Sequence record: NC_027395.1 | Origin: Escherichia phage vB_EcoP_SU10 | Reading direction: 5' to 3' (one strand) | Length of the DNA stretch: 64,000 nucleotides | Translations under genes and position numbers: made by a program | Part shown: positions 39,003 to 49,154 of the stretch, one piece after another | Numbering within the stretch: position 1 is the first letter of the stretch | Layout of the letters: every line of letters starts with the position of its first letter | Notes under the pieces: generated by a model | Databases searched by the model: none | Told to the model about the DNA's origin: nothing | What the model saw: the letters and a program-made list of their open reading frames with translations, nothing else

Positions 39003-39206
39003 TTAGTAGAACGAACGAATTTCATCCCACACTTGTTCCTGTTCTTTCCTATAAAAAGAAAGTTGGGTCTTGAACATCTCCACTGATGATTCAAAGTTTT
39101 TGGTTTGTGCAGCTTCAACGAAACGTTCATGTCGGTTGATTTTGCACCGTAGCATTAAATACTTGGCTTCAAGTCTCCGAAGAGCCTGCCTTTTCTCAAG
39201 ATTCAC
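39003..39206 (-). CDS. hypothetical protein
   Basis: 67-aa ORF. Confidence 0.35.
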   Translation of the reverse strand: MNLEKRQALRRLEAKYLMLRCKINRHERFVEAAQTKNFESSVEMFKTQLSFYRKEQEQVWDEIRSFY

Positions 39207-39615
39207 TTTTCAGATACTCTGACCAGTCGCCAGATTCAACCAGAACATCTTGTTCTTCGTCGATGTGATAAATCCAAGCGATCACAGTTTCACCGGAGTC
39301 CATCTTAACAGCGATCTGAGTACGCTGATAGAAGCTGTCTTCAGGGCTACGTTTGTTGTAACCTTCCAGACGGTCATACGGACCTTCCAGACCTGCTTTG
39401 TCAGTAGCAAACACTTCTACACGAACAGGCTTATTGTTATTACTGTGTGCGAGAGAGATGCTCGGGAAGTAGGAACCACCGTAACGGAACAGATCGAAGT
39501 TATCTTCAGTCCAACCTTCGCCAATAGACTTAGCACCAGCTCGATCATTAACTAAATAGTTAGCTTGACCACGACGAAGAGAACCATAAGTTGCTACGTA
39601 AATTACTTCTGACAT
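39196..39615 (-). CDS. gamma-glutamyl cyclotransferase-like (AIG2/GGCT family) protein
   Basis: N-terminal VIYVATYGSLRRGQANYLV and downstream YDRLEGY are AIG2/GGCT hallmarks. Confidence 0.6.
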   Translation of the reverse strand: MSEVIYVATYGSLRRGQANYLVNDRAGAKSIGEGWTEDNFDLFRYGGSYFPSISLAHSNNNKPVRVEVFATDKAGLEGPYDRLEGYNKRSPEDSFYQRTQIAVKMDSGETVIAWIYHIDEEQDVLVESGDWSEYLKSES

Positions 39616-39616
39616 T

Positions 39617-39826
39617 TTAAATACCTTTCCAGTCTTTCATGATGTTTTCAATGTAAGCACACTGCTGATCAGTGGCTCCTGTTACAAACACTTCTAACCC
39701 CAACTGCTCACAGAAGGGATTAAGAATCAATATTCTGGTTTGCCCATACGAGTGATGCTCTCGGTAGATAACACACCCAGCATCCCATACAGAGTCAATG
39801 GCTTTACTCAATCTTTCATGTTTCAT
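39617..39826 (-). CDS. hypothetical protein
   Basis: 69-aa ORF within the coupled operon. Confidence 0.35.
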   Translation of the reverse strand: MKHERLSKAIDSVWDAGCVIYREHHSYGQTRILILNPFCEQLGLEVFVTGATDQQCAYIENIMKDWKGI

Positions 39827-39879
39827 AAAACCTCCAGCTTATCCGAACTAGCCTCCTCTTTCGAAGAGGCTAAAGCAGA

Positions 39880-40065
39880 TTACTCTGTAATAAAGATTTT
39901 GATTACACCGCAGATTGCTGCACTCTCAAATACTGCAACAGCTTCACTTCCCTGAAAGAAGGCCACTTTGCCGTCAGAGAAGTTAAACATGTCAGCATCT
40001 AGGTCCATAGCTCGCATATCACCAGCGTCGTTAGTATCTTTAAACAGAACTTTATACTTATTCAC
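39880..40065 (-). CDS. hypothetical protein
   Basis: 61-aa ORF. Confidence 0.3.
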   Translation of the reverse strand: MNKYKVLFKDTNDAGDMRAMDLDADMFNFSDGKVAFFQGSEAVAVFESAAICGVIKIFITE

Positions 40066-46606: not shown

Positions 46607-47570
46607 TGTAATACTCCACTAGTTCAGAAAAGAGAGATGAGATTGTGTTACCAACTTCTTCAAGAGTAAGACCGGAATCTGCTCCAGTTCTTTGAATCAG
46701 TCGGGCTGTAAAGTTTTGTACTGTAATGTTTCCCAACTTGTCGTCTATTGCTTCACGTTTGTGACCATAACAGTTGGACCAGAGTCTTAACCACTCTGAC
46801 ATTGTTTCATACTCGTCCGGGTCTTGATCTTTAGCACGAGCAAATCTTCGTAAGGCACCTTGGTTATGGTTACGAACATAACCATTCTCGTTGTCGCCAA
46901 CACCGAAGGGGTTTTGAACCCATACTTGCTTCGTGTATTCATCAGAGTCTACAACCAAAGGAAGGAATGCTGCTGCTGACATATTGTTGTTAATAACAAT
47001 AGAGGTGCTCTCACTACTCCCATTGGCTCTTCCTCGTTGAGACCATCCACCGAAGAAGTCACGACCCAACCCAGCTAACACTAGAGCGATTCCGATGCGT
47101 TTACGCTTCAGCCACTCTTCCCTGTCTTCAATTCCTTCTGCTAGGAAATCCATTCCACGATATTGCCCTTCCAGAATACTACGAAAGAGCATAAGTCCTG
47201 TGAAGATCTGATCTGCTGGATGCTCACGAAGGTTGACAGCAACACTATTCGCTGAAGTGATCGTAAATACGTCACGATAGCAAGACATGGAGTTCATAAT
47301 GTCTGCTGTTTCAACCAAGTTCTTTTCAATATCAGATGCAACATGACCATGAAAAGAGTGAGTCCAGTAATTCAACATCTCCAGTTGCAAGTTGATATCA
47401 CGGTTGAAGCGACGATAGCGCCCCTCTTCCGTGATAACTTCACCATTAATGTCATTTACACACTGGCCTTGCATGTAGTTGTGGATACCGAAGCACCCAC
47501 GACCTAAGAACTTCTGTTCCCCTAAATCCTGTTGAAGATTAAGAGGTACGATCGTTGTGGAGATTGACAT
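46599..47570 (-). CDS. hypothetical protein in amidoligase operon
   Basis: 323 aa. Confidence 0.5.
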   Translation of the reverse strand: MSISTTIVPLNLQQDLGEQKFLGRGCFGIHNYMQGQCVNDINGEVITEEGRYRRFNRDINLQLEMLNYWTHSFHGHVASDIEKNLVETADIMNSMSCYRDVFTITSANSVAVNLREHPADQIFTGLMLFRSILEGQYRGMDFLAEGIEDREEWLKRKRIGIALVLAGLGRDFFGGWSQRGRANGSSESTSIVINNNMSAAAFLPLVVDSDEYTKQVWVQNPFGVGDNENGYVRNHNQGALRRFARAKDQDPDEYETMSEWLRLWSNCYGHKREAIDDKLGNITVQNFTARLIQRTGADSGLTLEEVGNTISSLFSELVEYYND

Positions 47571-47580
47571 AACTAACCTT

Positions 47581-48780
47581 TTATTTTCCTAAAAACAATC
47601 CGCTCATAATACCATCCCACTCAGAGGATGGAATCACTGAATACTCCGAACTTTGGTCCAGAGTCCCACTACTGAATCGCTGAACAATATTATAAATATT
47701 GAAAAAATCCTTAGTCTCAGCGCGATAAGCGTAGACTAATTTGTCAGCCGTTCTTTCATCTTTAGAAACTCGACGAGCAAAGGTAACCAGAAGATTGTCA
47801 CCTTTGAGCATTTCTGACCCATCTTTTACTAAATCAGGGTGCATCACTGGCAAGAACATTGAGTTGTTCACTCGTAATTCTGCTGTTTCATCATTCTCAT
47901 AATGAATCCACTTAAAATCTTCATCACGAAAGTGACCGCACCCATCTCTGTATGACTGTTGACGCCAAGGCACTTGAAATGCTTCAGCGTATTTATCAGC
48001 CATGCCGACTGTAAATAGCGACGCTGGAAAGATACAAGCATCCCAATCATTACCAACCAGAGTTGCTTTCGTTTCGCCCAAGAGGTTAGTGTAAGTGCTA
48101 ACCATTCGTGAGTAAACATAAGCCTGAAGGATTGTCCAGCCTTCAACCAACCATTTATGGAGGAAGGTTTCAACTTGACTCTCTTCATCTTCATAATAGA
48201 AGGTTCGGTCTAACATCAAATAGAACAGACAACGATCAGCAGGGATATTCTCAGTTGCTACCCCCATAAAACCTTTATCGTGCCAGCGTAAACAGGAGGG
48301 ACGATCTTTGTCCACAAATGCTTCCATAGCTTCCAGTACAGCACGAGGTGTGGTTCGATGTTCAGGGTTTTTGTCGTTCCAACGTTCGATGTTATTCTTG
48401 GGAGGTGTGTCTTCATCTTCATACGAACACCAACTTAAAGCTTCAGCTACATGCTTTTCATCACGCCAACGTCTAAAACCTAACATCTTCATATGAGTTC
48501 CGGAGTTCCAGATATGCTTGATTTTACACATATCCATCTCTCGGCTTAACAAGAATTCTTCCCCGTCAGCACTACGAACGTTGGCTTCTTCATGCCACAC
48601 TCGAACGTGCATATTCCATCCATGAGTTGCCTCATACATGTTAGGGTCGAAGTAGTCATCATCTTCATCGTCGTTTTCATCAACGCCGCCATTATAGTTG
48701 CGAAGTTGAAGGAACCCATAACAAGGGGGGTTGACCGTTAAAACATTACCTTCAGTATCTTCTAATGTTACTGGAAACAT
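47581..48780 (-). CDS. hypothetical protein in amidoligase operon
   Basis: 399 aa with acidic stretch DENDDEDDDYFD. Confidence 0.5.
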   Translation of the reverse strand: MFPVTLEDTEGNVLTVNPPCYGFLQLRNYNGGVDENDDEDDDYFDPNMYEATHGWNMHVRVWHEEANVRSADGEEFLLSREMDMCKIKHIWNSGTHMKMLGFRRWRDEKHVAEALSWCSYEDEDTPPKNNIERWNDKNPEHRTTPRAVLEAMEAFVDKDRPSCLRWHDKGFMGVATENIPADRCLFYLMLDRTFYYEDEESQVETFLHKWLVEGWTILQAYVYSRMVSTYTNLLGETKATLVGNDWDACIFPASLFTVGMADKYAEAFQVPWRQQSYRDGCGHFRDEDFKWIHYENDETAELRVNNSMFLPVMHPDLVKDGSEMLKGDNLLVTFARRVSKDERTADKLVYAYRAETKDFFNIYNIVQRFSSGTLDQSSEYSVIPSSEWDGIMSGLFLGK

Positions 48781-48791
48781 TATACCAACCT

Positions 48792-49154
48792 CTATTGGTT
48801 TTTAATCAACTCAATCGATTTACGAATATAAAGAATATCTCGGAAGTTTCGATAGTTGTTCATAAATTGATGCTTCTGGAAAGTAGCTTCTTCCAGAGCT
48901 TTCTTTGCGTCTGCGTAGCTTTTACGGGCAAGATGTACAACCCGTTCTGGTAACATGTTTGCATGACGGATGACATACTTGTGAGCTTTCATGTTGCTTT
49001 GCTCACGAGCAATCTTACCTTTAGCAACTTTGATACCATTTGCAATCCAAGCAAGTTCTTGCTCAAGCTCATCGTTGGACATTCCACCGAGGTTTGATGC
49101 AACCTTGTTCAGAGTTTCAATATTAACGTTGCCCTTGATGGGACGTGTATTCAT
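48792..49154 (-). CDS. hypothetical protein, first large ORF of operon
   Basis: 120 aa. Confidence 0.45.
   Translation of the reverse strand: MNTRPIKGNVNIETLNKVASNLGGMSNDELEQELAWIANGIKVAKGKIAREQSNMKAHKYVIRHANMLPERVVHLARKSYADAKKALEEATFQKHQFMNNYRNFRDILYIRKSIELIKNQ

Follow-up and report, generated by a model that had tools for sequence, protein, structure and literature searches.

The window analysed here, a stretch of 64,000 nucleotides (nt) from Escherichia phage vB_EcoP_SU10 (NC_027395.1), carries on its minus strand a block of genes (39196-49154) that is, judged by its sequence, the amidoligase cassette of phiEco32-type phages, in a copy near-identical to the type locus and already known as a prediction. 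By homology, three of the encoded proteins are carboxylate-amine ligases that depend on ATP, one of them RimK-like and the others GS/GCS-like; the block also encodes an N-terminal nucleophile (Ntn) amidohydrolase and a gamma-glutamyl(amine) cyclotransferase, and it is tentatively proposed, with a probability of roughly 45%, that these would form a cytoplasmic pathway that attaches, elaborates and then releases a gamma-glutamyl group on a small amine or peptide. As the published prediction was made on this very locus, and the Pfam family PF14395 is named after it, the cassette itself is no discovery. What is added here is a gp85-like family, a family marked by a PADR motif, a conserved ATT start codon, the recurring theme of gamma-glutamyl cleavage and a set of arguments against DNA modification.

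With Escherichia phage LorandFenyves (Bas91) the region 39196-49154 shares 98.3% identity, extending over its full length, and with phiEco32 the figure is 97.1%, which places the window in Kuravirus (Gordonclarkvirinae); 97 phage records match the region, nearly throughout from phages of Escherichia and Shigella. The genes are homologues of phi32_77 to phi32_89 of phiEco32 and of Bas91_0071 to Bas91_0084, and their products are referred to below by the phiEco32 numbers. An earlier note on this DNA had described about fourteen consecutive minus-strand genes at 39196-49154 joined by junctions at 41519/41522, 41960/41963, 45176/45173 and 46606/46599, the genes are indeed present and all four junctions are correct. 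There are 14 open reading frames (ORFs), all on the minus strand and tightly packed. Neighbours overlap by up to 20 nt or lie up to 11 nt apart, except that 79 nt precede the amidotransferase gene and 53 nt an ORF of 69 amino acids (aa). The same-strand packing does not end with these genes and runs on past 39196 through gp76, the primase/helicase, a polymerase exonuclease, a CCA-enzyme-like nucleotidyltransferase and dCTP deaminase. The cassette sits in the early/replication arm of this podovirus genome and precedes the primase/helicase and DNA polymerase, as it does in phages TL, phiM6, CVT22 and VPp1.

According to later papers, Iyer et al. 2009 proposed that the amidoligase and amidotransferase of phiEco32 modify the cell wall and so prevent superinfection. 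A later paper also credits Hardies et al. 2013 with a seven-gene "peptidoglycan modification cassette" that is reported to be kept in RIO-1, phiEco32, 7-11, PA11, tf, MR299-2, LUZ24, PaP3 and CW02. The earlier note had mentioned that comparative genomics predicted such enzyme combinations in phages; that prediction exists and was made on the phiEco32 locus itself (genes 77-89). The cassette genes are also listed in the genome papers of tf and UFV-P2, and proteomics of SU10 lysates detected the ATP-grasp, amidotransferase and YtfP-like (GGCT) proteins among the early gene products. In the literature searched no experimental substrate, product or phenotype was found, only genome reports repeating the 2009 and 2013 predictions.

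The enzyme classes named in the earlier note (a GGCT-like protein, an ATP-grasp protein, a class II glutamine amidotransferase and two amidoligases) were upheld by profile searches of Pfam, PHROGs, NCBIfam and the PDB, and the motifs on which they had been based are all present: LEVNTAPG, CGIV with RGQ and HNG, HVH twice and YGSLRRG. The first of the ligases, gp86 (45800-46606, minus strand, 268 aa), is a COOH-NH2 ligase of type 2 in the GCS/GS superfamily, with matches to phrog_3815 and to the "phage phiEco32-like" family PF14395 (E 2.4e-8, 34.0 bits against a cutoff of 25). It is 99% identical to gp86 of phiEco32, and 27 of its residues are invariant across six phage groups. The family comprises 1663 clusters at 90% identity, the best 120 of which are single-domain proteins of about 265 aa, encoded on phage-sized contigs wherever a size is listed; one contig of 189 kb that carries the cassette is also phage-like, only larger, and its genes are arranged in the same way. 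The second, gp84 (44073-45176, minus strand, 367 aa), is an Amidoligase_2 protein, also a GS/GCS-like carboxylate-amine ligase, with matches to PF12224 (E 4.7e-8, above the cutoff) and phrog_7469; the residues E31/E33/E35, H95/H97, E119, R130, E186 and R188 are invariant in the alignment. For neither gp84 nor gp86 did searches of the PDB with single sequences and with profiles find a sequence relative.

The third ligase, gp80 (40317-41519, minus strand, 400 aa; phrog_2599), consists of an ATP-grasp region at about residues 1-270, an acidic linker and a C-terminal domain of about 80 aa (phrog_20552). As a single sequence it gives a weak ATP-grasp signal (E 0.006-0.01). A profile built from 13 cassette ATP-grasp sequences has its best PDB matches, at E 7e-14, in RimK-type alpha-L-glutamate ligases (7qys/7qyr), and reaches E 1.5e-11 with the RimK of E. 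coli, with cyanophycin synthetase, Ddl, GshAB and LysX matching more weakly, and the match to the RimK structure spans positions 41-259 of the profile. The MptN/RimK matches in NCBIfam are partial, at 31.5 bits against 143.4 and 25.1 bits against 331 (the cutoffs of TIGR00768 and NF007764), so gp80 appears RimK-like yet falls below the curated family cutoffs, and its membership of these families is not established.

The amidohydrolase, gp83 (41963-43993, minus strand, 676 aa), is predicted to be a class II (Ntn) glutamine amidotransferase. The evidence is a GATase_6/7 match in Pfam just below the cutoff (E 5e-5), NCBIfam matches to GlmS, PurF, AsnB and EgtC, of which that to EgtC is weak (E 2.5e-4), and a BLASTP alignment of the domain at about residues 1-235 to the glutaminase domain of GlmS (E 4e-8). 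In this alignment gp83 retains Cys1 and the Arg, Asn-Gly and Asp of the glutamine site, therefore it probably binds L-glutamine or a gamma-glutamyl head group. The C-terminal 440 residues or so contain three Cys4 zinc-ribbon-like motifs and had no credible match to a known synthase domain in Pfam or NCBIfam, the only hit being a sub-threshold one to A2M_BRD (E 0.033). It is conserved adjacency, and that only, which suggests a partnership of gp83 with the neighbouring Amidoligase_2.

The start of the gp83 gene is unusual. The codon directly before that of the nucleophile Cys (TGT) is ATT (43993-43991, minus strand), and with an in-frame TAG two codons upstream of the Cys codon the ORF makes sense only with the ATT start. 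A Shine-Dalgarno-like GGTGG lies 8 nt upstream (44002-44006, minus strand), and the context of the ATT is kept in all Kuravirus loci examined, including ones that are about 78% identical. The phiEco32 annotation has the same 2031-nt coding sequence with an ATT start, distant relatives of the C3 morphotype have an ATG start for the amidotransferase gene instead. With so rare a start codon the amidotransferase may be held at a low level or may respond to IF3. The annotation of phage TL splits the amidotransferase into two misc_features (L002, 9508-10609) of 253 aa for the N-terminal and 113 aa for the C-terminal part in place of a single CDS, which points to a frameshift, an error in the sequence or a gene that has been disrupted.

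The last of the recognisable enzymes, gp77 (39196-39615, minus strand, 139 aa), is an AIG2/GGACT-like gamma-glutamyl(amine) cyclotransferase, matching PF06094 at E 3.4e-17 (63.6 bits against a cutoff of 22.8) and phrog_2520 at E 1e-44. The YGSLRRG motif lies at residues 10-16, and Glu84, within DRLEGY, is the candidate catalytic residue. Homologues are found as gp21 of TL, g037 of Cellulophaga phage phi14:2 and phiM6_94.

Comparison between phages makes it apparent that these genes belong together. The COOH-NH2 ligase is present in about 305-309 of 50,697 phage records, and all listed hosts are Gram-negative, comprising Pseudomonas, Escherichia, Vibrio, Aeromonas, Proteus, Salmonella, Cronobacter, Klebsiella, Rhizobium/Sinorhizobium and Cellulophaga. 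The same gene families in the same order, adjoining the primase/helicase and DNA polymerase, are found in phage groups that are not related to one another, namely Bruynoghevirus TL, the crAss-like Cellulophaga phage phi14:2, phiM6, CVT22 of the Zobellviridae and Vibrio phage VPp1, and pairwise similarity confirmed the orthology of the five enzymes across these groups. A scan of viral contigs gave 79 loci, and in the 35 of these with sufficient flanks the cassette families were counted by clustering of ORFs and searches with hidden Markov models (HMMs). The class II amidotransferase and the ATP-grasp protein were found in all 35 loci, Amidoligase_2 in 34, a gp85-like protein in 26, GGCT in 21 and Peptidase_C26, a family not encoded in the Kuravirus block and carried in the cassettes of VPp1, CVT22 and phiM6, in 10, with GGCT and/or Peptidase_C26 present in 27. 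The usual order is an optional Peptidase_C26, COOH-NH2 ligase, gp85-like protein, Amidoligase_2, class II amidotransferase, ATP-grasp protein, an optional GGCT, primase/helicase and PolA. Three different families that cleave L-gamma-glutamyl-X (class II amidotransferase, GGCT and Peptidase_C26) recur beside the GS-like ligases. Homing HNH endonuclease genes are inserted within the cassettes of UFV-P2, phiM6, VPp1 and YF01.

The families that neighbour the cassette are replication proteins and the SU10-type major capsid protein, and because these neighbours are shared, vertical inheritance within a single supergroup of podoviruses accounts for much of the linkage to replication genes. An exception is the crAss-like phage, which shows that the cassette has been transferred horizontally as a unit.

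A sixth core component of the cassette is gp85 (45173-45790, minus strand, 205 aa), a protein with a double SH3-like beta-barrel, which by position and sequence has homologues in gp16 of TL, gp50 of VPp1, phiM6_75 and a 186-aa protein of CVT22. The clusters of gp85-like proteins from the different loci align with one another at hhalign probabilities of 93-98%, with few invariant residues (G88-Y89, R106, G111, R146, K160 and G165), mostly polar or glycine. A profile search of 1.84 billion representatives returned 1637 relatives at E <=1e-3, of which the best 150 are, with few exceptions, proteins of about 150-225 aa that stand alone. A scan of 103 aligned members gave no credible Pfam domain in any of them, and for gp85 no enzyme fold was found; the structural neighbours include the RNA polymerase-binding Tudor domains of UvrD/PcrA and CarD. 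As the protein stands alone and is without a Pfam domain it is seen as a non-catalytic adaptor or carrier and not as an enzyme, probably an adaptor or substrate-binding subunit and possibly the modified protein or carrier itself. Two fusions were considered and dropped: HMMs did not detect a gp85-like part in the Amidoligase_2 protein g041 of phi14:2, and an apparent fusion of COOH-NH2 ligase and gp85 in one locus (L064) proved to be an ORF of its own, the N-terminal extension of which is unrelated.

Upstream of the COOH-NH2 ligase gene lie two genes that may belong to the cassette as well. gp88 (47581-48780, minus strand, 399 aa) is marked by a PADR motif and has 21 relatives, with identities down to 31% and 45 invariant columns, many of them polar. 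Foldseek against viral models linked it to proteins of 290-322 aa in related phages, and hhalign matched it over its full length to a 306-aa marine family (E 2.6e-4), with both PADR and an N-terminal F.V...PC[YF] motif in agreement; in 26 marine contigs it is a gene of this family that directly precedes the one for the COOH-NH2 ligase. The fold of gp88 is apparently new, and the protein is possibly a further enzyme of the cassette. gp87 (46599-47570, minus strand, 323 aa), the gene for which overlaps that of the COOH-NH2 ligase by 8 nt, has PADQ at residues 118-121 and matches the same marine family over its full length in hhalign (E 6e-4). Motif, position and hhalign are suggestive of gp87 and gp88 probably being a duplicated, semi-conserved extra component, with gp87 the divergent paralogue of gp88. 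A component of this type occurs in 17 of the 35 loci. The proteins gp13/gp14 of TL, gp45 of VPp1 and a 442-aa protein of CVT22 were rejected as homologues (hhalign below 2%, no PADR motif), and the upstream proteins of phiM6 showed no relationship to the family.

The conserved cassette would then comprise about 6-8 of the 14 genes, namely GGCT, the ATP-grasp protein, the class II amidotransferase, Amidoligase_2, the gp85-like protein, the COOH-NH2 ligase, probably gp87/gp88 and perhaps gp82, a DUF7195 protein. The earlier note had seen in the block what looked like a dedicated pathway; gp89 and the other small ORFs, which occur in only a few related lineages, are not counted among the conserved genes. 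Its broader suggestion, of amide-bond chemistry that builds or removes a gamma-glutamyl-type or peptide adduct, is borne out by the profile searches and by comparative genomics.

How the parts could act together may be envisaged as follows. gp86, gp84 and gp80 would activate carboxylates as acyl-phosphates and form successive amide bonds of glutamate or gamma-glutamyl type on a substrate bearing an amine or a carboxylate, with the gp85-like barrel, always encoded between the two GS-like ligases, as a non-catalytic adaptor that would present the substrate or bridge the ligases. gp83 would either pass ammonia from glutamine to the adjacent Amidoligase_2 or hydrolyse a gamma-glutamyl amide in the manner of EgtC. 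gp77 would remove the gamma-glutamyl group as 5-oxoproline, and the gamma-glutamyl hydrolase of the Peptidase_C26 family, which is added to or replaces GGCT in some relatives, would release glutamate. The cassette would be expressed with the early/replication genes. As the ligases depend on ATP and no N-terminal signal peptides were obvious in the translations when read by eye, the chemistry is likely to be cytoplasmic. The candidate substrates can be ranked, with a small amine or peptide (including a cell-wall precursor peptide) first, followed by the side chain or C-terminus of a protein, and with DNA or nucleotides in last place.

A number of points weigh against this gamma-glutamyl pathway on a small amine or peptide. 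The literature searched contains no biochemical demonstration of any step and names neither a substrate or product nor a phenotype; the order of the reactions and the use of glutamate follow from family resemblance only, and the GS-like ligases lack a sequence relative of known structure. In 8 of the 35 loci there is no GGCT or Peptidase_C26 within 10 kb, therefore the release step may not be obligatory. The invariant lysine of the adaptor and the RimK/LysX-like ATP-grasp protein fit a protein target equally well. Finally, the BASEL work reports that Gordonclarkvirinae resist restriction-modification (RM) systems in vivo, and this resistance keeps a role related to nucleic acids alive.

The rival that survives best, although it is on the whole unlikely, is that the ligases add glutamate or a short gamma-glutamyl peptide to a protein of the host or phage, at a lysine or at its C-terminal carboxylate, much as RimK acts on ribosomal protein S6, LysX on the carrier LysW or PafA/Dop in pupylation. 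In such a scheme targeting would fall to the gp85-like barrel as adaptor, or the barrel would itself be the carrier, and the class II amidotransferase, GGCT and Peptidase_C26 would edit or recycle the tag. The ATP-grasp profile being closest to RimK (E 7e-14), with LysX also among its matches, would agree with this, as would the resemblance of the pair of GS-like ligases to PafA and Dop, the zinc ribbons of the amidotransferase and the character of the gp85-like protein as a non-enzymatic Tudor/KOW/SH3-like module with an invariant lysine (Lys160) and the UvrD/PcrA Tudor domain and CarD among its neighbours. However, no conserved small tag protein is present, the small ORFs of the block having C-termini that are not conserved, and enzymes of the GGACT type act on free gamma-glutamylamines and are not known to act on protein-bound ones. 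A carrier or tag like Pup or LysW was sought among the small ORFs of the block and rejected, with no conserved C-terminal Gln or Glu.

The published prediction, that the stem peptide of peptidoglycan or its cytoplasmic precursor is remodelled to alter the envelope, for example to exclude superinfecting phages, is judged a little less probable again. Later papers name Iyer et al. 2009 and also Hardies et al. 2013 as its source. All listed hosts of the approximately 309 isolate genomes are Gram-negative, typically with walls of the meso-diaminopimelate (mDAP) type, although this limit may reflect the host range of the podovirus supergroup that shares the SU10-type capsid protein. Stem-peptide chemistry offers parallels, in that Ddl and the D-Asp ligase are ATP-grasp enzymes and amidation depends on glutamine, but the cassette ATP-grasp profile is nearer to RimK than to Ddl (7e-14 against 1.7e-6). 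Furthermore, the amidotransferase keeps the residues that bind the free alpha-amino and alpha-carboxylate groups of L-Gln or gamma-Glu, and GGCT and Peptidase_C26 need the same head group, whereas the stem peptide has a D-iso-glutamate, which is of the D configuration and carries an acyl group on its nitrogen. Experimental support for the prediction was not found in the literature searched.

Hypermodification of DNA or nucleotides, with an amino-acid-type adduct on a base or deoxynucleotide that would explain the restriction resistance of Gordonclarkvirinae, is very improbable and was set aside as the leading idea on the evidence of ThyX, site avoidance and digests of tf DNA. The cassette always lies within or beside the replication/nucleotide-metabolism module, and BASEL reports RM resistance in phages without a known modification pathway, but the synteny with replication genes is largely a matter of the vertical inheritance noted above. 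ThyX (PF02511) and dCTP deaminase provide a canonical route to dTMP, which also argues against the suggestion in BASEL that dU replaces dT, and Pfam and PHROG scans of the 9 larger proteins of the cluster found no hydroxymethylase, kinase, glycosylase or transferase of known hypermodification pathways. In the window (1-64000) 9 EcoRI, 31 EcoRV, 9 EcoKI and 86 EcoP1 sites remain, yet CCWGG occurs 3 times against about 84 expected, GGATCC 0 times against 11, CTGCAG 0 times against 18 and GATC 139 times against 251, and such extreme avoidance of restriction sites suggests that the DNA is exposed to restriction. The virion DNA of tf, a cassette-bearing phage, has been cut by RsaI, HpaI, EcoRV, SmaI and HaeIII and cloned; no such digest of Kuravirus DNA was found. 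Virion DNA is thus an unlikely target, the least likely of those proposed in the earlier note.

That the cassette nevertheless causes the RM resistance of Gordonclarkvirinae, by a sparse or labile amino-acid-type adduct on DNA, or by a glutamyl-type modification of a host protein or a co-injected protein, or a small molecule, that disables restriction, is a long shot; if true it would be a new class of phage counter-defence chemistry. PADLOC models of defence systems gave no matches to the proteins at E 0.01 or better.

ThyX is encoded at 31747-32403 and dCTP deaminase at 34720-35253, and the gene at 35263-36624 is that of a 453-aa protein which gives a weak match to a poly(A)-polymerase/CCA-enzyme head domain; all three are on the minus strand. 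Also among the replication genes are those for a thioredoxin (32419-32694, minus strand) and a protein with a ferritin-like domain (32943-33554, minus strand). A tRNA-Arg(TCT) gene (53329-53404, minus strand) is the sole Rfam/ARAGORN match in the window.

The remaining genes of the block are small. gp89 (48792-49154, minus strand, 120 aa) has a match to phrog_11370 only, its cluster is limited to Kuravirus relatives and nothing ties it to the pathway. gp82 (41727-41960, minus strand, 77 aa) is the DUF7195 protein (PF23825, E 4.7e-17); a similar protein recurs between the class II amidotransferase and the ATP-grasp protein in three further loci (L020, L022 and L087), it is weakly similar to gp19 of TL, and its V..RK.PM...D.LRA pattern looks like that of a ribbon-helix-helix protein. 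gp81 (41522-41746, minus strand, 74 aa), which has no Pfam match, is found only in Kuravirus and relatives of the C3 morphotype. gp79 (40062-40310, minus strand, 82 aa, no Pfam match), gp78 (39880-40065, minus strand, 61 aa) and the 69-aa ORF (39617-39826, minus strand), the last annotated in Bas91 and not in phiEco32, form clusters only in Kuravirus and close relatives. Upstream of the block a scan for the consensus, and that scan only, picked out a terminator-like hairpin followed by a T-run (49336-49353, minus strand), a possible upstream boundary of the transcription unit. The phiEco32 sigma-dependent promoter motif TAATGTATA showed no enrichment and was absent from the cluster.

The cassette takes up about 6-10 kb of genomes of 45-77 kb and is conserved in a very large group of podoviruses, the Gram-negative hosts of which live in the gut, in soil and in the sea. 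The COOH-NH2 ligase and the gp85-like protein each form about 1,600 clusters, and the cassette is present in about 300 isolate genomes, yet more than 15 years after the prediction no report was found that gives its substrate or product or describes a phenotype. Its solution could bring to light a new phage metabolite, protein modification or envelope modification, and could give functions to two Pfam families and two unannotated families. As the BASEL collection includes Kuraviruses that infect K-12, the cassette is experimentally tractable.

Amongst described systems the closest is phi32_77-phi32_89 of phiEco32 (Iyer, Abhiman, Burroughs & Aravind 2009), the same locus with the same genes in the same order, from which the block here differs only in the extra 69-aa ORF. 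The alpha-L-glutamate ligases RimK and LysX are the best PDB relatives of the cassette ATP-grasp protein (E 7e-14 to 1.5e-11), but gp80 reaches 31 bits against equivalog cutoffs of 143-350 bits and has an acidic linker and a C-terminal domain in addition. PafA and Dop are likewise two GS-like carboxylate-amine ligases, paralogous in fold, that are encoded together, and it is possible that one ligates and one edits, although the cassette has no Pup-like tag, no link to a proteasome and no detectable sequence similarity to them.

PuuA/PuuD, EgtA/EgtC and BtrJ/BtrG all serve pathways in which an amine receives a gamma-glutamyl group that is taken off again once the conjugate has been processed, and since known pathways pair such ligases with the same cleaving enzymes, the same logic is proposed for the cassette. 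The puu system of E. coli resembles it in the use of a GS-like ligase (the gamma-glutamylputrescine synthetase PuuA) and a C26 gamma-glutamyl hydrolase (PuuD), the latter family being present in relatives of the cassette, but Kuravirus has GGCT instead of C26 and no oxidase or dehydrogenase, and a polyamine substrate would be a guess. In ergothioneine synthesis, EgtA, a gamma-glutamylcysteine ligase, and EgtC, a gamma-glutamyl amidohydrolase, likewise combine a GCS-type ligase with a stand-alone class II amidotransferase domain that lacks a synthase domain, whereas the cassette has no homologues of EgtB, EgtD or EgtE and gp83 lies far below the EgtC cutoff and has a long C-terminal region with zinc ribbons. 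In butirosin synthesis the ATP-grasp enzyme BtrJ is paired with BtrG, a cyclotransferase of the AIG2/GGCT fold that takes off the gamma-glutamyl protecting group as 5-oxoproline; the cassette shares this pairing but is without an acyl carrier protein or aminoglycoside genes, and adds to it two GS-like ligases and an Ntn amidotransferase.

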